Assembly (NCBI GenBank): GCA_016176505.1
Contig: JACOXB010000006.1
Span: 7,240-71,239, forward strand
Reading direction: 5' to 3'
Source of the DNA: Candidatus Colwellbacteria bacterium
Lineage (GTDB): Bacteria > Patescibacteriota > Minisyncoccia > UBA6257 > Colwellbacteraceae
DNA length: 64,000 nt
The number at the start of each line of letters is the position of its first letter. The stretch's first letter is position 1. Under the pieces are notes generated by a model, which did no database searches, was not told where the DNA came from, and saw only the letters and a list, made by a program, of their open reading frames with translations. Both the position numbers and the translations under genes were made by a program. Positions 3,445 through 41,638 of this stretch are shown here, in pieces.

Positions 3445-3489
3445 AACGAAAGGTCGGGCGAATTCGAGATTGATTAAAGAATTAAATCA

Positions 3490-3756: not shown

Positions 3757-5367
3757 ATGGATTCTTTGAGCGAACTTAAGCGGGTTATTAAAGGCGAGGT
3801 TTTACGAGCGCCCGAGGTTCTTGATAAATACAGTGAGGACGCAAGTCTTTTTAAGATCAAGCCTCAGGCGGTTGTTTTTCCTAAAGACGCGGCTGATTTA
3901 GGAGCCCTGGTTAGATCCGGTTTTTCTTTATCGCCTCGAGGCGGAGGGAGCGATATGACCGGCGGCCCCTTGACCGAATCAGTCGTTGTTGACCTTACTA
4001 AGCATTTCAATCGCATCGGCGAGATTAAAGGAAATCGAATTTCGGTTGAGCCAGGCGCTTTTTACCGGGATTTTGAAAAAGAAACCTTAAAACACAACTT
4101 GCTTCTGCCTTCTTTCCCAGCCTCACGCGAGCTTTGCACTTTAGGCGGCATGGTGGCGAACAACGCTGCTGGCGAGAAAACTTTAAGCTACGGTAAAACC
4201 AATCGTTATGTTAAGTCCTTAAAGGTTATTCTCCGGGACGGCAATGAATATTTCTTCAAGCCGCTTAATCAAAAAGAGCTTACCGAGAAGCTCGAATTCA
4301 ATAATCTTGAAGGGGAAATTTATCGCGGAGTTCATAAACTAATTAACGAAAACTACGAAGCGATTCAAGCGGCAAGGCCGAAAGTTTCTAAAAACTCGGC
4401 TGGTTACGCTCTGTGGGATGTTTGGGATAAAAAAACTTTTGATTTAACCCAGCTTTTTACTGGCTCCCAGGGGACGCTCGGCATTATTACTGAAATTGAA
4501 TTTGAGCTTGTCCGGCCGAAACCTTACTCAAAAATGCTTATTATTTTCCTCCGTAATACCGAATCTTTGGCCGAGATTATTAATCAGGTACTTCGCGAAA
4601 AGCCAGAAACTTTCGAATCTTATGATGATCATACTTTAAGTCTGGCCCTCAAATTCCTGCCCCAATTTGTTAAATTACTTAAAGGAAATATTTTGGGGGT
4701 TGCTTGGAAGTTTTTGCCGGAATTCAGGATGATTTTAACCGGCGGAATGCCCAAAATGGTTTTAACGGCCGAATTTACCGGCGACGATCCGGCCGAAATT
4801 GAGGCAAGAGCAAGGATTGCCAGAGCGGCGCTCGAACCCTTCGGAGTGAAAACGCGGATTACTAAATCTGCTAAAGAAGTTGAAAAATATCATTTAATCA
4901 GGCGGGAGAGTTTTAATCTTTTGCGCCACCGCCTTAAGGGGAGAAAGGCCGCGCCCTTTATTGACGACATTATTGTGAGGCCTGAAAAACTGCCGGAATT
5001 TCTGCCCGAACTCGATAAAATTCTCGACGAGTATCCCAGCCTTATTTACGGTATGGCTGGGCATATTGGCGATGGCAACTTTCATATTTTCCCCTTAATG
5101 GATTTAACTGATCCCAAGACCAGAGAAATCATCCCGGCCTTAATGGATGAAGTCTATCGTTTAATTCTCCGGTTCGGGGGCTCGCTTACGGCTGAACATA
5201 ATGATGGCTTGCTTCGAGGGCCGTATTTAAAACAAGTGTACGGCGAAAAAATTTATCACCTATTCGAAGAGGTAAAACGTATTTTTGATCCGGAAAATAT
5301 CTTTAATCCCGGCAAAAAAGTGGGTACGAGTTTAGAATACGCTCTGGCTCACCTAAAAAGCGGGTGA
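3757..5367 (+). CDS. FAD-linked oxidase (GlcD / D-lactate dehydrogenase-like)
   Basis: PCMH-type FAD-binding N-terminus (GGGSDMTGG) and C-terminal FAD-oxidase domain. Confidence 0.7.
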   Translation: MDSLSELKRVIKGEVLRAPEVLDKYSEDASLFKIKPQAVVFPKDAADLGALVRSGFSLSPRGGGSDMTGGPLTESVVVDLTKHFNRIGEIKGNRISVEPGAFYRDFEKETLKHNLLLPSFPASRELCTLGGMVANNAAGEKTLSYGKTNRYVKSLKVILRDGNEYFFKPLNQKELTEKLEFNNLEGEIYRGVHKLINENYEAIQAARPKVSKNSAGYALWDVWDKKTFDLTQLFTGSQGTLGIITEIEFELVRPKPYSKMLIIFLRNTESLAEIINQVLREKPETFESYDDHTLSLALKFLPQFVKLLKGNILGVAWKFLPEFRMILTGGMPKMVLTAEFTGDDPAEIEARARIARAALEPFGVKTRITKSAKEVEKYHLIRRESFNLLRHRLKGRKAAPFIDDIIVRPEKLPEFLPELDKILDEYPSLIYGMAGHIGDGNFHIFPLMDLTDPKTREIIPALMDEVYRLILRFGGSLTAEHNDGLLRGPYLKQVYGEKIYHLFEEVKRIFDPENIFNPGKKVGTSLEYALAHLKSG

Positions 5368-33129: not shown

Positions 33130-34071
33130 ATGAATATGAAGTTCAAGAAGGCCTTACTTATAAACATCGATGGCCCCGCCCTAGATAAGAAATATTGGGA
33201 AAAGCTCGACCAGCTCATAGATAAAAGAGTTTATCTTCCGAAAGACAGTTCTGATATCGAGAAAGAATTACCAGATACAGATTGCCTGCTTGTTGGTTTC
33301 GGCGTGCCGGTCACCAAAGAGCAGATAGACCGAGCCCCCGATCTTAAATACATAGGCGTTTTAGCTACCGCCTTTGGGAAAATTGATGTCGATTATGCAG
33401 GAAAAAGAAATATTCCTGTTTGTAATCTAGCGGGATATAGTACTGAGTCGGTTGCAGAATTTACAATCGCCGCCATCCTAGAGCACATACGAGGACTCGA
33501 GGAGGGTAAAAAGAGAGGTAGGGAGGGGAAATATCCAGAGGAGGGGATGAGCGCAAAAGAAATAAAAGGTAAAGTATTCGGGATAATAGGCTTAGGAAGC
33601 ATCGGAAGACGAGTCGGAGAGTTAGCGCAAGGTTTTAATGCCGATGTTAGATATTGGTCCAGAAATAAGAAAGAGGTTCCTTTCGGATATCGAGACGCCG
33701 ATTCCCTAATCGCTGAGGCTGATTTTCTGTCTATAAATCTTGCTCAAACACCAGATACAGAGAGCTTCTTAAATAAAAGAAGGCTCGATAGTCTTAAAGA
33801 AGGAGCGGTCGTTATAAACACGACACCGATGGAATTAGTTGATATCGACGCCCTAGCGGAGAAACTTTCTAAAAACGATATAACTTTTATTCTTGATCAT
33901 TCGGACGAAATGAGTAAAGAGGATTTGGCAAAGCTTTCTAAATACGAAAACTGTATTATTTATCCTCCTATTGCTTATATAACAGGAGAGGCCCGGATCA
34001 ATAAACAAGAACTGTTTATCAGTAATATTCAGAGCTTCCTCAGTGGTAAACCCACGAATAAAGTTAACTAG
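33130..34071 (+). CDS. D-isomer-specific 2-hydroxyacid dehydrogenase family protein
   Basis: NAD-binding GIIGLGSIGRRVG and catalytic-domain layout. Confidence 0.7.
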   Translation: MNMKFKKALLINIDGPALDKKYWEKLDQLIDKRVYLPKDSSDIEKELPDTDCLLVGFGVPVTKEQIDRAPDLKYIGVLATAFGKIDVDYAGKRNIPVCNLAGYSTESVAEFTIAAILEHIRGLEEGKKRGREGKYPEEGMSAKEIKGKVFGIIGLGSIGRRVGELAQGFNADVRYWSRNKKEVPFGYRDADSLIAEADFLSINLAQTPDTESFLNKRRLDSLKEGAVVINTTPMELVDIDALAEKLSKNDITFILDHSDEMSKEDLAKLSKYENCIIYPPIAYITGEARINKQELFISNIQSFLSGKPTNKVN

Positions 34072-34117
34072 GTGTATTCCGAGGGAGGGCTAAGCCATTC
34101 CTATTCGAATGTCCATC

Positions 34118-34143
34118 CTGCTACTGAGCATGCTCAGTAGCAG
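34118..34143. repeat. Palindrome ctgctactgagcatgctcagtagcag, copy 2 (candidate operator)
   Basis: Same 26-bp inverted repeat as 33044-33066, about 30 bp upstream of the AbrB-like ORF. Confidence 0.5.
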
Positions 34144-34173
34144 GTTCAGTAGCAATCCTCTAAGATATTAGAG

Positions 34174-34347
34174 ATGGTAAAGAAACCTCATATCCGAAAA
34201 CTCACCCGCATGGGCGGCGGCCGCTCGCTCGGTCTCGTCCTCCCCGCCGATTTAGTCCGCGACCTCAACTGGCGCGAACGCCAAAAAGTCGTGGTCAAGA
34301 AGGTCGGGAAAAGGATAGTCGTCGAGGATTGGCCAGTTCGAGAGTGA
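34174..34347 (+). CDS. AbrB/MazE/SpoVT-family small DNA-binding protein (57 aa)
   Basis: MVKKPHIRKLTRMGGGRSLGLVLPADLVRDLNW... has a swapped-hairpin-like core. About 60% GC. Not in the ORF track (shorter than 60 aa). Immediately upstream of the methyltransferase. Confidence 0.45.
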   Translation: MVKKPHIRKLTRMGGGRSLGLVLPADLVRDLNWRERQKVVVKKVGKRIVVEDWPVRE

Positions 34348-34359
34348 GGGGGTAATTTC

Positions 34360-35313
34360 ATGAAAAAACCATCATCAAATAAAAGCCTACATAAAGCAAA
34401 AGATATCAAGAATGATGAATTTTATACTCGTTTTGATGATATTCAGGCAGAACTAAATTTTTATAAAGACCAGTTTAAAGGCAAAGTAATTTACTGTAAT
34501 TGCGATGATCCGGCCGAAAGCGCCTTCATTGATTTTTTCAAATTGAATTTCGATTACTTAGGTATTAAAAAGTTAATTGGTACTCGCTATCAAAAATCAA
34601 ACCTCTTTTTGTTTGCCGACCCTGCTAGACGGAACGGTTATAGGTTAGAAATAACAGCGAAAAATAAAGACGACAAAAAACCCGTCAAAATAAATTTGAA
34701 AGGAGACGGTGACTTTCGTTCGCCGGAATGCATTGAGTTATTAGAAGAGGCGGACATTGTTATTACTAACCCGCCGTTTTCACTGTTTCGTGAATATGTC
34801 GCTCAATTGATGAAATACAATAAAAAGTTTTTGATAATTGGAAACGATAACGCCATTAAATATAAAGGGATTTTTGAGCTAATAAAAGAAAATAAAGTAT
34901 GGCTTGGTTACACTAGAGCTAAGGAGTTTTATAGACCAGACGGCTCAACACAAAAATTTGGCAATGTTGGTTGGTATACTAATTTAGATGTTAAAAAGCG
35001 ACATGAAGAGTTGTTTTTGTATAAAACATACAAAGACAATAAAAAAGATTACCCAAAATATGATAATTATGACGCAATTGAAGTCTCAAGAATAAAGAAC
35101 ATACCAATGGATTATGAAGGATCAATGGGTGTTCCAATTACTTTCTTAAACAAGCACAACCCTGGGCAATTTGATATTATTGATCTACTAAATAGATATA
35201 CCTTGCTTGATACGCAAAAGACAAATGAAGATGTTAGAGCAAGACATTCCCACACTTGTAATATAAACGGTAAGGCCGTCTATTCTAGGATCGTGATTAA
35301 AAGAAAAAAATAA
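34360..35313 (+). CDS. EcoRI-family N6-adenine DNA methyltransferase (M.EcoRI-like)
   Basis: Collinear with M.EcoRI as I recall it: KSLHKAKDIKNDEFYT, VIYCNCDDP, NPPFSLFREY, FLIIGN, YPKYDNYDAI, MGVPITFL. About 33% GC, well below the window average. Confidence 0.8.
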   Translation: MKKPSSNKSLHKAKDIKNDEFYTRFDDIQAELNFYKDQFKGKVIYCNCDDPAESAFIDFFKLNFDYLGIKKLIGTRYQKSNLFLFADPARRNGYRLEITAKNKDDKKPVKINLKGDGDFRSPECIELLEEADIVITNPPFSLFREYVAQLMKYNKKFLIIGNDNAIKYKGIFELIKENKVWLGYTRAKEFYRPDGSTQKFGNVGWYTNLDVKKRHEELFLYKTYKDNKKDYPKYDNYDAIEVSRIKNIPMDYEGSMGVPITFLNKHNPGQFDIIDLLNRYTLLDTQKTNEDVRARHSHTCNINGKAVYSRIVIKRKK

Positions 35314-35316
35314 ACT

Positions 35317-36426
35317 ATGGATACGATACATCAACGAATAAAAGTAAAAGATGTTTTTAATGGCTACCTAGATAAAGATTGGGACGGCGTTGTCGGTTAT
35401 GGCGGAAAATTAGATATTCGCCCAATTTACCAGCGTGAGTTTATCTACAACCCAGAAAATGAGCGAGCGGTTATAGACACAATTTTGAAGGAGCATCCGC
35501 TAAATCTGATGTATTGGGTCAAAAATAAGAACCACAATTTTGAATTATTGGATGGGCAACAGCGAACCTTGTCAATTTGCCGTTTTCTTGATCATAAATA
35601 TCACATTGAACTCAACGGAGAAAAAAGATATTGTGATACATTATTGAAGGAAGATTTGGATAAAATAAAAAATTACGAACTAGATGTCTATATTTGCGAA
35701 GGAAAAGAAAAAGAAATTTTAGAATGGTTTAAAACCATAAATATTAAAGGTAAAGAATTAAACCCTCAAGAATTATTAAACGCCACTCATACAGGAACTT
35801 GGCTTACCGACGCAAAAAGGTATTTTAGCAAGCCAAATTGTGCCGCCAAGGGTTTGGGAGAAGATTATATTAACGCAAGCGTGGAACGACAGGAATTTTT
35901 AGAAACCGCTTTGAAATGGATAAACAATGGAGACGCGCAAGGTTATATGGCGATTCACAGAAACGACGCGAACGCAAAAGAACTACAAGATTATTTTGCT
36001 AATGTAATTAAATGGATTAAAAAAACTTTTACTACCCATCGCAGAGAAATGAAAAATGTGAACTGGGGCGAGCTATATAATCAATTCAAGGATGTGAAGC
36101 TTGATGCCGGTAAATTGGAGAAAGAAATTGCCAAACTGATGGAGGACGAAGAAATTGGTGATCAAAAAGGAATTTATGATTATGTCTTGACGAGAAATGA
36201 GCGAAGCTTGAATCTGCGAACTTTTGACGAAAAAACCAAACGCCGAACTTACGAAAAACAAAAAGGAATTTGTCCACATTGTAAGGGAGAGAATAAGAAA
36301 AAGAAATGGAAATTTGAGGAAATGGAAGGTGATCATAAAAAACTTTGGAGCGAGGGAGGAAAAACAATCCCAGAAAATTGCCAAATGTTATGCAAGGACT
36401 GTCATCGAGAAAAATCTGGAAAATAA
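35317..36426 (+). CDS. DUF262 (DGQQR, ParB-like) plus C-terminal HNH nuclease fusion; GmrSD-like type IV restriction candidate
   Basis: LLDGQQRTL motif at the N-terminus. C-terminal CPHCKG ... GDHKKLWSEGG ... NCQMLCKDCHREK is a canonical HNH. AT-rich like the MTase, 4 bp downstream of it. Confidence 0.7.
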   Translation: MDTIHQRIKVKDVFNGYLDKDWDGVVGYGGKLDIRPIYQREFIYNPENERAVIDTILKEHPLNLMYWVKNKNHNFELLDGQQRTLSICRFLDHKYHIELNGEKRYCDTLLKEDLDKIKNYELDVYICEGKEKEILEWFKTINIKGKELNPQELLNATHTGTWLTDAKRYFSKPNCAAKGLGEDYINASVERQEFLETALKWINNGDAQGYMAIHRNDANAKELQDYFANVIKWIKKTFTTHRREMKNVNWGELYNQFKDVKLDAGKLEKEIAKLMEDEEIGDQKGIYDYVLTRNERSLNLRTFDEKTKRRTYEKQKGICPHCKGENKKKKWKFEEMEGDHKKLWSEGGKTIPENCQMLCKDCHREKSGK

Positions 36427-36516
36427 TACGAACGGGGGAGATAGTAAGGGAGATTAAAATTGTTGAGAGCGGGTCAGATTGATGGGGGAAGAGGTAGGGT
36501 TTAGAATAAGGTCATC

Positions 36517-37542
36517 ATGGAACGCAAAACATTAATTCAACAAATAGAGGGATTAAGGAGCTCCAAGGTAATCACTTATATCACTAGCGATCGGCAGGGG
36601 CCGGTGAGCGCTAAAGTGGCTATGGATATCATTCCCGTCATGAGCCGACAGCTTCGAGATATCGGAAAAACCGAAAACATCGATTTATTTCTTTATAGTA
36701 CGGGGGGAGATACTATGGTGCCGTGGCGTTTGGTCTCTATGGTCAGGGAATACTGCGAGAAGTTTTCCGTACTAATACCATACAAAGCCCATAGTGCGGC
36801 AACTATGATTGCGCTCGGGGCGGATGAAGTAGTGATGAGCGATCTCTCTGAGCTGTCACCGATCGATCCGTCAACGGCAAACGTTTTTAACCCAATCGAT
36901 CCAAAAAATCCGCAGAATAGAGTTGCCATCTCCGTCGAAGACGTAATGGCCTATTTCGATCTAGTTAAAAACAAATTTGGGGTGAAAAACGACGAGGACC
37001 TCACTAAAGTCTTCGTAAAGTTTATCGAGTCGAACCCTCAGATTCACCCTCTAGCACTAGGTAACGTAAATCGTATCCATAATTTAATTCGTATTCTTGC
37101 GCAGAGGCTTCTAAAAAGCCACAGGTCGCCCATGAAAGAGGAAGAAATAAATAAAGTGGTTGATTACTTTACGGAAAAACTTTACTCACACCAATACTTT
37201 ATCGGTCGCAAAGAAGCCAAAGAAGATCTGGGGCTAAAAACGGTAGTTTTTGCTGATAGCGCACTTTCTAAAGCGATGACCGATCTTTACGGAGAATATG
37301 AGAAAGAAATGGAACTCGGTGTAATATGGAATCCGGAAAATGAGCTCGGCCTAAACGCTGCACAGAATAGAAAAACATATAAGATTGCCTTTATTGAGGG
37401 CAACCAACCCTCGAATTATTTTGAACTTGAAGTCGAATATCGCAGGCAGCAGATGAATGTAGCCCAACAAACTCCTCAAGGCTCGATCCAGGTTCCGCAA
37501 GAACAGGTTATTTGGCGGGTTGTCGGCCAGGGGTGGAGATAA
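36517..37542 (+). CDS. ClpP-fold serine protease (SDH / S49-like family)
   Basis: LFLYSTGGDTMVPWRL ... YKAHSAATMIALGADEV aligns with the ClpP/S49 oxyanion and catalytic-Ser regions. Confidence 0.55.
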   Translation: MERKTLIQQIEGLRSSKVITYITSDRQGPVSAKVAMDIIPVMSRQLRDIGKTENIDLFLYSTGGDTMVPWRLVSMVREYCEKFSVLIPYKAHSAATMIALGADEVVMSDLSELSPIDPSTANVFNPIDPKNPQNRVAISVEDVMAYFDLVKNKFGVKNDEDLTKVFVKFIESNPQIHPLALGNVNRIHNLIRILAQRLLKSHRSPMKEEEINKVVDYFTEKLYSHQYFIGRKEAKEDLGLKTVVFADSALSKAMTDLYGEYEKEMELGVIWNPENELGLNAAQNRKTYKIAFIEGNQPSNYFELEVEYRRQQMNVAQQTPQGSIQVPQEQVIWRVVGQGWR

Positions 37543-37551
37543 GGAATACCT

Positions 37552-37974
37552 ATGTCGACCATTAAACCAAAAATAAATTACGCCTTTCTATGTGATTATG
37601 CCTTTATTAGTGGGGGCGATAAGTTAAATATTATCGGGATTTTTAAAAACATAAACACGCAGAATCTTCCAGCTCAACACCCTTTGATGTTTGTGGTTAC
37701 TAGTATAGCCGTGGCGACTAAGGGTAACTTTAAAGTAAATATCAAATTTGTTCGCCGGCTAGATAATGTGGAGATAATCCCGCCCCTAGATTTCGATATT
37801 TCCATGGTTTCAGATGAGGGATCTAGAGAGGGGGAACTTGGCGTAATAGGTCAAATTGCAAATCTAAAATTCGAGGAAGCCGGGATGTACGATGTCCTAG
37901 TTCTTGTTAACGGAGAGAACATAGGAAGTTTGCCTCTCCAAGTACTCCATTTAAAGAAAAATGCCGCGAAATAA
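37552..37974 (+). CDS. Hypothetical 140-aa protein (second gene of the protease operon)
   Basis: 10-bp spacing from the protease gene; soluble; no family recognised. Confidence 0.4.
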   Translation: MSTIKPKINYAFLCDYAFISGGDKLNIIGIFKNINTQNLPAQHPLMFVVTSIAVATKGNFKVNIKFVRRLDNVEIIPPLDFDISMVSDEGSREGELGVIGQIANLKFEEAGMYDVLVLVNGENIGSLPLQVLHLKKNAAK

Positions 37975-38344
37975 AAAAGCGGAGAAGCCGAAATCATCAT
38001 TTCAATTTCTGGCAACAGAGAGTGAGTCGACTGGTGATATAACGCCGCTGGAAAAACGAGTAAGTCCTATCGAGATCAGGGTTGGGCAACTCGAGGTAAA
38101 ACTAGAGGCGCTAGAAGAACGACTGAAAGGCGAACGAGCTCTAAAATTATGGGTGATAGGTACCGTACTAGCGATTGTTGCAGGCATTTTCGGGGCCCTT
38201 ACGATATACATCAATTTAACCAAAGATTCACAGGACTCATACCGAGAGCTTCAGAATAATTATTACGAGAAACTACTGGAGCTAAGGAAAGATATTTTAT
38301 CAGAGAAAAACGCTAGCTCTCAACCACCTCAAAGCGCTAAGTGA
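37961..38344 (+). CDS. Coiled-coil protein with one TM helix (127 aa)
   Basis: Overlaps the previous gene by 14 nt; heptad region then a TM segment. Confidence 0.4.
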   Translation: MPRNKKAEKPKSSFQFLATESESTGDITPLEKRVSPIEIRVGQLEVKLEALEERLKGERALKLWVIGTVLAIVAGIFGALTIYINLTKDSQDSYRELQNNYYEKLLELRKDILSEKNASSQPPQSAK

Positions 38345-38388
38345 GCAGGATCCTCGGACAGCCGTAATTTAATTGAGAAATAAAATTT

Positions 38389-38955
38389 ATGGATAATTTC
38401 GAATTTTTTATTAGGAATACTTCTATAAATATAAGAGAGCTTAGGGATAAAATCGGTAAGTCGTTGCTCGATCTTAGAGTAGATAATATTAAACAAATCA
38501 GAGAACTTATTAAGCAGTTTATTATAATTTCCGGTGCGATTATCGGTTTCACGATACCGGTGTTTGGAAGAACTAAACTTATCAGAACGCCAGTATTTCT
38601 TACCGGTGGACTAATAGAGCTGTTAATCGTCATGGTGTATGCCTTTTATTACCTGATGCATATTTTAGAGAGCGAAAATCAAAAGTTAGGAGAACAGCAC
38701 GAACGTTATAATAAGATTATTGATAGCCTAAGAGATAATCTGATTATTTTTGCCACGAGCGATAAGACCGAGAAAGACGCACAAAAGCAACTTGACTCCG
38801 ATAAACAAGTGTTGGATGAATTTCTATCCGAAGAGGCGGGCGACAAGGGTAATAAGAAAGATTACGCCTTAAATATTATTTTTTCTGCGTTTTTGGTCGG
38901 ACTCGTATTGATAATCTTATCAATGATAAATTTTCAGAATTTAATTTCGGATTAG
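38389..38955 (+). CDS. Three-TM membrane protein (188 aa)
   Basis: AT-rich; hydrophobic helices at roughly 55-75, 85-110 and 165-185; charged coiled-coil middle region. Confidence 0.4.
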   Translation: MDNFEFFIRNTSINIRELRDKIGKSLLDLRVDNIKQIRELIKQFIIISGAIIGFTIPVFGRTKLIRTPVFLTGGLIELLIVMVYAFYYLMHILESENQKLGEQHERYNKIIDSLRDNLIIFATSDKTEKDAQKQLDSDKQVLDEFLSEEAGDKGNKKDYALNIIFSAFLVGLVLIILSMINFQNLISD

Positions 38956-40975: not shown

Positions 40976-41638
40976 ATGATAAAACTTTCGCCGTCAGCTT
41001 TAAATTTATTTCTTGAATGTCCCCGGTGTTTCTGGGCCGAGCGGGTGAGGGGAATCCATCGGCCGAATGGGCCGTTTCCGTCACTCCCTGGCGGCATTGA
41101 TAGCGTGCTTAAGAAATACTTTGATAAGTTTCGGGAAAAAGACGAACTGCCGCCGGAAATTGAAGGTAAGGTTGAAGGCAAGCTATTGAACGATCCGGTT
41201 CTCCAGATTTGGCGGCAAAATCTGAAAGGCATACGGTATTACGATAAGGAACTCGATGCCGAGCTAATGGGGGCCTTGGATGACTGCTTAATTGACGGCA
41301 GTGATTATATTGCGGTTGATTATAAAACCCGGGGCTGGCTCCCCAAAGATGATTCTCATACTTATTATCAAAACCAGCTTAATGTCTATACGCTTCTCCT
41401 CGAGAAGAACGGCTACAAGCACAAAAATTTTGCCTATCTTGTTTTCTATTCTCCAGAGGAAGTACTGGGGCAGGGGACTATCAAGTTCAATGTCGAGGTT
41501 CGAAAAGTAGAGGTTAATCCAAAAGTGGCTTATAAGGTTTTTGAAGAAGCAGTTGAAGTTTTACGCGGACCTCAGCCACCGGCGCATTCCGATTGCCAGT
41601 TTTGTTCCTGGGGAAACGACTATATTATCCTCGACTAA
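40976..41638 (+). CDS. Cas4-like PD-(D/E)XK nuclease with four Cys (putative Fe-S); stand-alone
   Basis: N-terminal CPRC, DYKT (D-ExK), QxxxY (QLNVYTLL), C-terminal CQFC. No cas genes or array nearby. Confidence 0.55.
   Translation: MIKLSPSALNLFLECPRCFWAERVRGIHRPNGPFPSLPGGIDSVLKKYFDKFREKDELPPEIEGKVEGKLLNDPVLQIWRQNLKGIRYYDKELDAELMGALDDCLIDGSDYIAVDYKTRGWLPKDDSHTYYQNQLNVYTLLLEKNGYKHKNFAYLVFYSPEEVLGQGTIKFNVEVRKVEVNPKVAYKVFEEAVEVLRGPQPPAHSDCQFCSWGNDYIILD

Follow-up and report, generated by a model that had tools for sequence, protein, structure and literature searches.

Two adjacent genes, at positions 34360-36426 on the forward strand of a 64-kb stretch of DNA from a Candidatus Colwellbacteria bacterium (the whole stretch is called the window here), encode a predicted N6-adenine DNA methyltransferase (MTase) of the EcoRI family, designated M, and a predicted nuclease, R, in which a DUF262 domain with the motif DGQQR is fused to an HNH domain (Table 1). 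The pair is very probably a two-gene restriction-modification (R-M) module of the BanLI family, situated on an island of low guanine-cytosine (GC) content, in which M would mark a target sequence and R would restrict DNA that lacks the mark.

M and R are read on a common strand and in a common frame, and the gap between them consists of the TAA stop codon of M and 3 nt (ACT). M matches the Pfam family EcoRI_methylase (PF13651) over profile positions 2-345 of 345 (E 1.5e-115) and the PADLOC MTase_II model PDLC03297 over its full length (E 2e-114). One GenBank protein, from a Candidatus Colwellbacteria MAG, has 100 % identity to M. The catalytic NPPF of M lies at amino acids (aa) 137-140, and three hypervariable blocks with a putative role in target recognition lie at aa ~78-112, 184-200 and 274-304. 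A preliminary description of the locus, made from the sequence alone, had called the MTase collinear with M.EcoRI, and this is borne out by the full-profile match and by the occurrence of NDEFYT, CNCDDP, NPPFSLFREY, YPKYDNYDAI and MGVPITFL in the 317-aa translation. The same description had recognized R as a DGQQR (DUF262) domain joined to a canonical HNH; Pfam finds both, GmrSD_N/DUF262 at aa 34-158 (E 2e-18) and the classical HNH PF01844 at aa 319-367 (E 4e-10). The DUF262 domain contains YQREF (aa 38-42) and DGQQR (aa 79-83), the zinc-finger HNH residues are C319, C322, D339-H340, N354, C359, C362 and H364, and the protein matches the PADLOC REase_II model PDLC03418 over its full length (E 7.9e-112). 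On direct reading, the catalytic motifs of the pair (NPPF; DGQQR; HNH with its zinc-finger cysteines) are intact.

The Pfam scan of R gave GmrSD_N and HNH only, with neither a helicase nor a PD-(D/E)XK domain and with no match to DUF1524 at E <= 0.01, the C-terminus being the PF01844 HNH. GmrSD, SspE and BrxU carry DUF1524 and not a PF01844 HNH, as had been remarked earlier and in agreement with reviews. In a PADLOC scan of the window's 45 open reading frames (ORFs) with a length of 170 aa or more, the DUF262-HNH gene was the sole match to a restriction endonuclease (REase) model and no PD-(D/E)XK partner of the R.EcoRI type was found, which confirms the reported absence of an R.EcoRI-like gene. 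No NCBIfam profile matched M or R. In a sequence search of the PDB, R matched only the HNH of McrA (E 0.04), and M was without any relative. The AlphaFold2 model of R, which is confident (predicted local distance difference test, pLDDT, 89), predicts a ParB/Srx-fold DUF262 domain at the N-terminus, a helical domain in the middle and a beta-beta-alpha-metal HNH at the C-terminus. A Foldseek search with this model against the PDB returned similarity at the level of domains only (E at least 1e-3), to ParB-CDP, Noc, BrxU, SspE, Gme-HNH and McrA, and no solved Type II enzyme sharing the architecture of R.

Relationship to BanLI and linkage of the two genes

BanLI is an R-M system of Bifidobacterium animalis subsp. 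lactis, the methylase of which was aligned with M.EcoRI when the system was described (O'Connell Motherway et al., 2014; PMC3990576). Single-molecule real-time (SMRT) sequencing revealed methylation at RTC(6mA)GG, on one strand only, at 1576 of 1576 genomic sites, and M.BanLI cloned in E. coli reproduced this methylation; the cloned BanLI locus lowered P1vir plating about 10-fold, and pre-methylation of incoming DNA raised transformation 1.8-fold (PMC3990576). The explanation offered was that of an 'incomplete Type IIS' system whose second methylase had been lost (PMC3990576). REBASE lists the B. animalis gene for a 'DUF262 domain-containing protein' as Ban8145ORF124P (RTCAGG), a Type II REase, with M.Ban504ORFAP as its partner methylase (PMC13091528, 2026).

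The BanLI locus was retrieved from metagenome contigs by an exact match to one published primer (PMC3990576); the primer as an exact probe had no match in viral contigs, and the published primers are insufficient for reading the protein termini. The order of genes is integrase, M (370 aa) and R (372 aa). Window R is 46 % identical to R.BanLI over 369/372 aa (BLASTP, E 2e-123), and window M is 46 % identical to M.BanLI (E 2e-93). Because R.BanLI matches 372/372 positions of PDLC03418 at E 6.6e-274, this PADLOC model is effectively the BanLI model. The window pair is classed on these alignments as a fresh copy of a catalogued R-M family and not as another kind of system. The new R-M logic, or the hitherto unseen MTase-guarded type IV enzyme, that the preliminary description had envisaged thus gives way to a full-length homologue (46 %/46 %) of a named R-M system. 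Its impression of an unusual system does not hold for the novelty of the logic and does hold for the oddness of the mechanism, as no enzymology or biochemical paper on the nuclease family was found within the literature that could be searched. The BanLI-type family is not among the DUF262 defence proteins treated in the reviews consulted (GmrSD, BrxU, SspE, Menshen, Dazbog and PD-T4-2), nor does it figure in a classification of Type II REases by fold from 2008.

The forward primer of the 2014 study, RM.BanLIF (PMC3990576), which served to clone 'RM.BanLI' downstream of a synthetic ribosome-binding site, anneals not at banLI.M but at the integrase ATG (MAKRET...; L098 2200-2216). M and R were therefore expressed indirectly from the 'RM' construct, and this may contribute to the weak restriction that was observed (efficiency of plating, EOP, 0.1).

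A scan of species-representative genomes yielded 80 loci, distributed over almost all bacterial phyla and two archaea; 70 of them have at least 900 bp upstream of the nuclease and could be tested for linkage. In 69 of the 70, a PF13651 MTase is encoded upstream on the same strand, abutting the nuclease gene in 62 and separated from it by 0.5-3.6 kb of inserted DNA in 7; at the exceptional locus a RhuM gene, and then the contig end, are found upstream of the nuclease. The genes nested between M and R in the 7 interrupted loci (L032, L036, L044, L047, L049, L061 and L071; also L026, 189-836) encode Bro-N, RhuM, HEPN, DUF6261, DUF1828/1829 and DUF2130 with T5orf172. Passenger genes of the same kinds are also nested inside Type I R-M operons. 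The MTase likewise precedes the nuclease in 5/5 plasmid homologues, from five genera (Mammaliicoccus, Lactiplantibacillus, Aeromonas, Gordonia and Enterococcus). Metagenomic relatives with 89 %, 63 % and 55 % nuclease identity have a PF13651 MTase directly upstream amid wholly different flanking genes: dnaK is a neighbour in one of them and rpoB in a second, and the third lies in an integrase/Mob_Pre element that holds a further, divergent M-R pair.

In 35 of 62 distinct pairs the two genes share 4 or 11 nt, and the pairwise distances of M and R are correlated (Mantel r 0.55; maximum of 2000 permutations 0.29). Across the 62 pairs, NPPF is retained in 61, DGQQR in 62 and HNH in 61. The pairing of M and R is genuine, near-obligate and co-diverging. 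Two doubts had been raised beforehand, that the MTase might be inactive, with NPPF mutated in orthologues, and that the nuclease might always occur without an MTase and be juxtaposed with this one by accident. Because NPPF is kept in nearly all partner MTases and the MTase accompanies the nuclease at all testable loci save one, both doubts fall, and it was concluded that the pair is a functional unit.

How the proteins vary across this family bears on where specificity resides. Insertions amount to about 2 residues per sequence in R, which is free of hypervariable blocks, and to about 55 per sequence in M, which has three indel-rich hypervariable blocks; pairwise identity averages 0.60 in R, 0.66 in the M core and 0.20 in the M variable blocks. 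The nucleases of L065 (Firmicutes) and L082 (Bacteroidaceae) are 97 % identical, and variable blocks 2 and 3 of their MTases are of unrelated sequence and different length. Similar replacement of M blocks beside close nucleases is seen in L058, L059 and L088. The combination of a conserved R with swappable M blocks hints at specificity residing in M, as in Type III systems. Furthermore, a single MTase is the norm (69/70), and the loss of a second methylase invoked in 2014 is therefore unlikely.

Other arrangements of these genes were also encountered. An integrase/Mob_Pre/resolvase element (L008 5048-9867, also in L009) carries two convergent M-R pairs of the BanLI-type family, with R 38 % and M 44 % identical between the pairs, presumably giving one mobile element two specificities. 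Single polypeptides combining EcoRI_methylase, GmrSD_N and HNH are represented by P0258 (688 aa) and P0386 (515 aa, partial, HNH missing), which may be read either as natural fusions of M with R or as artefacts of a frameshift at an overlapping stop/start. EcoRI-family MTases with neither an EcoRI-type nor a DUF262-HNH partner are found on a Campylobacter coli plasmid (L102 2501-4148), where a 230-aa hypothetical protein lacking any PADLOC match is encoded after the MTase, and on a Vibrio harveyi plasmid (L103). The PF13651 MTase family therefore has further partners or orphan members.

Target sequence and weighing of the BanLI assignment

True M.EcoRI, taken from an E. coli plasmid on which it lies beside an annotated 'type-2 restriction enzyme EcoRI', is 46 % identical to window M by tblastn and 52 % by MAFFT. 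Window M is thus equally far from M.BanLI (RTCAGG) and M.EcoRI (GAATTC), at 46-52 %, and its three variable blocks differ from those of both; because they differ from the M.BanLI blocks, the target is probably not RTCAGG. GAATTC occurs 21 times in the window against 21.1 expected from a maximal-order Markov model, a non-avoidance that does not exclude GAATTC specificity. The earlier statement that GAATTC is not visibly avoided is upheld by this count, as is its example at 3460, and the positions 4290 and 4725 that it also gave need correction to 4294 and 4720. TGCA (0.55) and CATG (0.64) are low in the window, both being commonly depleted words. Derivation of a recognition sequence from k-mer depletion was rejected as uninformative at 64 kb.

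In L082 and L008 M1, which are partners of DUF262-HNH nucleases, the C-terminal variable block is nearly identical to that of M.EcoRI (L100 2501-3481): …KFRKG.DEKDL.INGKCPYFRILIKNK. This resemblance suggests that blocks have been exchanged between EcoRI-type and BanLI-type systems.

Several points weigh against reading the window pair as a BanLI-family module that marks a target and restricts unmarked DNA. RTCAGG is not depleted on the two strands of the window (70 observed, 68.7 expected), and no specific depleted word emerged among its palindromic 4- and 6-mers and all of its 5- and 6-mers (64 kb). Judged by sequence relationship, a target is not transferable to window M at 46 % identity, as M.EcoRI is equally distant. 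Restriction by BanLI itself is weak (EOP 0.1; 1.8-fold), so that the data behind a classical REase role for R are thin, and the published 'RM' construct, which starts at the integrase ATG, left the expression of M and R uncontrolled. A simple Type IIP mechanism is hard to reconcile with a mark on only one strand of an asymmetric site. Finally, the window copy is known from sequence only, the experimental data being those of BanLI.

As a BanLI-family R-M module, the pair would be expected to act in the following way. M, by homology to M.BanLI and M.EcoRI, would place an N6-methyl group on an adenine in a short target sequence, and the HNH of the presumably co-transcribed R would cut or nick DNA lacking this mark. 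By analogy with GmrSD, BrxU and SspE, the ParB/Srx-like DGQQR domain would most likely bind or hydrolyse a nucleoside triphosphate (NTP) and so gate the nuclease.

Genomic neighbourhood of the module

The GC content is 0.33 for M and 0.36 for R, compared with 0.46 for the window, and low GC continues to about 39 kb; the module therefore lies on a foreign island. Most of the window's genes have housekeeping roles, murG, gltX, pgk, tpi and ftsW among them. Signs of mobility of the module are the differing neighbourhoods even at 89 % identity, the integrase/Mob element and the occurrence on plasmids.

Table 1. Genes and other features at and around the M-R pair (positions in the window).
Feature	Positions	Strand	Description
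M, EcoRI-family N6-adenine DNA methyltransferase	34360..35313	+	317 aa; PF13651; PADLOC MTase_II PDLC03297
R, DUF262(DGQQR)+HNH nuclease	35317..36426	+	369 aa; GmrSD_N + HNH PF01844; PADLOC REase_II PDLC03418
AbrB/MazE (SpoVT)-fold ORF	34174..34347	+	57 aa; MazE_antitoxin E 1.7e-4, below gathering score
SDH-type ClpP-like serine protease	36517-37542		downstream of R
DUF6941 protein	37552-37974		downstream of R
Palindrome	34117-34144		28 nt, perfect
Cas4-like protein	40976-41638		220 aa

The AbrB-like ORF ends 12 nt upstream of the M start, and its GC of 0.575, against 0.33 for M, suggests that it is of other origin than M. In L005-L007 a related M-R pair has, two genes upstream, a 57-aa ORF 56 % identical to the AbrB-like ORF, and the other ~90 loci have none. 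Whether the AbrB-like ORF belongs to the system is uncertain; it may control transcription of the module or be what is left of an antitoxin. Between this ORF and the gene for a 2-hydroxyacid dehydrogenase is the palindrome, CCTGCTACTGAGCATGCTCAGTAGCAGG, which is followed by a partial repeat, TCAGTAGCA, with no T-run, and which could be a terminator or an operator. A scan of 33900-36700 for promoters and terminators gave counts at or below shuffle expectation.

Downstream of R, the region 36517-38955 holds, besides the protease and the DUF6941 protein, two small ORFs with no Pfam, PADLOC or NCBIfam match. An SDH protease with 75 % identity adjoins a related M-R pair in L002, on the opposite (upstream) side, and the group of genes in this region may be a shuffled defence or mobile island. 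Neither the AbrB-like ORF nor the SDH protease was retained as a family-wide component, both occurring only in close relatives within the Candidate Phyla Radiation (CPR). Farther downstream, the 220-aa protein matched four Cas4 models (best E 3e-13). With neither further cas genes nor a CRISPR array noticed among the long ORFs, it seems to be a Cas4/RecB-like nuclease that stands alone.

Mechanistic alternatives and comparison with known systems

A possible refinement of the BanLI-type R-M reading, although one that falls short of being probable, is that restriction is directed by M in the manner of Type III systems. M would supply target recognition within an M-R complex and R would read no sequence; the ParB-like NTP switch would serve communication along the DNA or licensing, and sites methylated on one strand would escape self-cleavage after replication. 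The uniform conservation of R beside the hypervariable blocks of M fits such a division of labor, as do the near-identical nucleases that accompany MTases with unrelated variable blocks (L065/L082 and, similarly, L058, L059 and L088). Further support comes from the marking by BanLI of a single strand at an asymmetric site, in the manner of Type III Mod, from the presence of just one MTase as the norm in the family, from the gene order of M then R with overlaps, from the single-chain polypeptides P0258 and P0386, which join the two proteins, and from the invariance of the NTP-binding motif DGQQR. However, this support is entirely comparative. The variable blocks of EcoRI-family MTases are only putative target-recognition domains, with no structure in the PDB, and MTases with different loops could have one specificity in common; a frameshift at the ATGA overlap could have given the false appearance of fusions, and the motif is known for one member only. 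Taken together, the comparative patterns, the one-strand methylation by BanLI and the invariant NTP motif point, tentatively, to a Type III-like logic.

It is unlikely that R instead senses the self mark as SspE does, with a DUF262 domain that binds host N6-methyladenine (m6A), stimulation of the NTPase and nicking of the unmarked invader by HNH, so that methylation would be needed for defence itself. SspE, which also combines DUF262 with a His-Me nuclease, is reported to need the host phosphorothioate mark for its activity (PMC9646914). An N-terminal domain with DGQQR is common to R and SspE, and a modification enzyme is always co-encoded with R. However, binding of m6A by any DUF262 domain was not found in the literature covered, and such sensing accounts for the weak but real protection by BanLI pre-methylation no better than plain R-M.

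Least credible of all is a Type IV-like, modification-dependent nuclease, in which DUF262 would, like its counterparts in GmrSD and BrxU, detect a modified base of foreign DNA and the MTase would act as a guard or have some other purpose: the N-terminal domain of R does belong to the Pfam family of GmrS, BrxU and SspE are among its best structure matches (at domain level only, E at least 1e-3) and weak PADLOC matches to NsnA, PD-T4-2_A and mREase_IV were found, but the MTase is obligatorily co-inherited and translationally coupled, and BanLI pre-methylation raised transformation 1.8-fold rather than lowering it. Near-obligate, overlapping, same-strand linkage to one MTase family (69/70), with co-divergence, would not be expected of a stand-alone enzyme, a nuclease that cut the mark of its own operon partner would be suicidal, and the BanLI-type family is without DUF1524.

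Taken alone, the window locus is ordinary, an uncultured bacterium having one more example of an R-M family that is already catalogued. Wider interest attaches to the family. A search of 1.84 billion representative proteins, clustered at 50 % identity, returned 365 clusters with E <= 1e-30 and 3707 with E <= 1e-3. Almost all bacterial phyla and some archaea have the family, and it is carried on plasmids of the clinically and industrially relevant Enterococcus, Staphylococcaceae, lactobacilli, Bifidobacterium and Klebsiella/Aeromonas; BanLI-type systems are a practical barrier to transformation. The nuclease was found in 66 plasmid records and a PF13651-type MTase in 77, the remainder including true EcoRI plasmids of Enterobacteriaceae. 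It is conceivable, if rather doubtful, that the BanLI family, including the window copy, represents an unrecognised class of NTP-gated, methyltransferase-directed restriction, with a ParB/Srx switch and an HNH in the role of Res, specificity in swappable M blocks, one-strand marking, and R recruited or licensed by M. If this were true, the textbook Type II enzyme EcoRI would be an atypical offshoot of an MTase family whose commonest plasmid partner is a DUF262-HNH nuclease. What is new here is comparative: the single-MTase norm, the conserved R with a mosaic M, the M-R fusions and the invariant NTP motif lead to a testable hypothesis on a ParB-like NTP switch in restriction.

Comparison with GmrSD, BrxU and SspE reveals a common N-terminal ParB/Srx-fold DUF262 domain with DGQQR and a common layout, in which an NTPase domain and a helical domain precede a C-terminal His-Me nuclease; the structural matches of window R to BrxU (7p9k) and SspE (6jiv) are at domain level only, with E at least 1e-3. 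In contrast to these enzymes, window R has a zinc-finger HNH (PF01844) where they have DUF1524, it is 369 aa long compared with 560-770 aa, and the BanLI-type nuclease is co-encoded with an m6A methyltransferase (69/70 loci) and so is not stand-alone. Type III systems such as EcoP15I resemble the window pair in having an operon with M (mod) first, variable MTase blocks combined with a conserved R subunit, and an NTP-binding motif in R. Methylation of one strand of an asymmetric site is a further likeness, known for BanLI only. They differ in that window R is without a helicase/translocase and PD-(D/E)XK, in the family of the MTase, and in the M-R complex and two-site requirement, Type III traits for which evidence has so far not been obtained in the BanLI family.

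With EcoRI the window pair has in common an MTase that belongs to the Pfam family of M.EcoRI (PF13651) and is collinear with it. R.EcoRI is a PD-(D/E)XK enzyme (PADLOC PDLC03551), unlike window R, which is an unrelated DUF262-HNH protein (PDLC03418); the gene order is R then M in EcoRI and M then R in the window, and the variable blocks of window M are unlike those of M.EcoRI. BanLI is the closest of the known systems. Its differences from the window pair are that the latter is hosted by a bacterium of the CPR/Patescibacteria, that window M is 53 aa shorter and has other variable blocks, including a ~17-aa deletion common to other CPR copies, and that no integrase is adjacent to the window pair, which is flanked by the AbrB-like small ORF upstream and the SDH-type protease downstream. 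Both protein families are nevertheless common to the two systems and can be aligned over their full length (46 % and 46 %), the genes follow the order M then R and abut or overlap, NPPF, DGQQR and the CxxC...DH...N motif of HNH are present in both, and both systems are housed on a low-GC mobile island.

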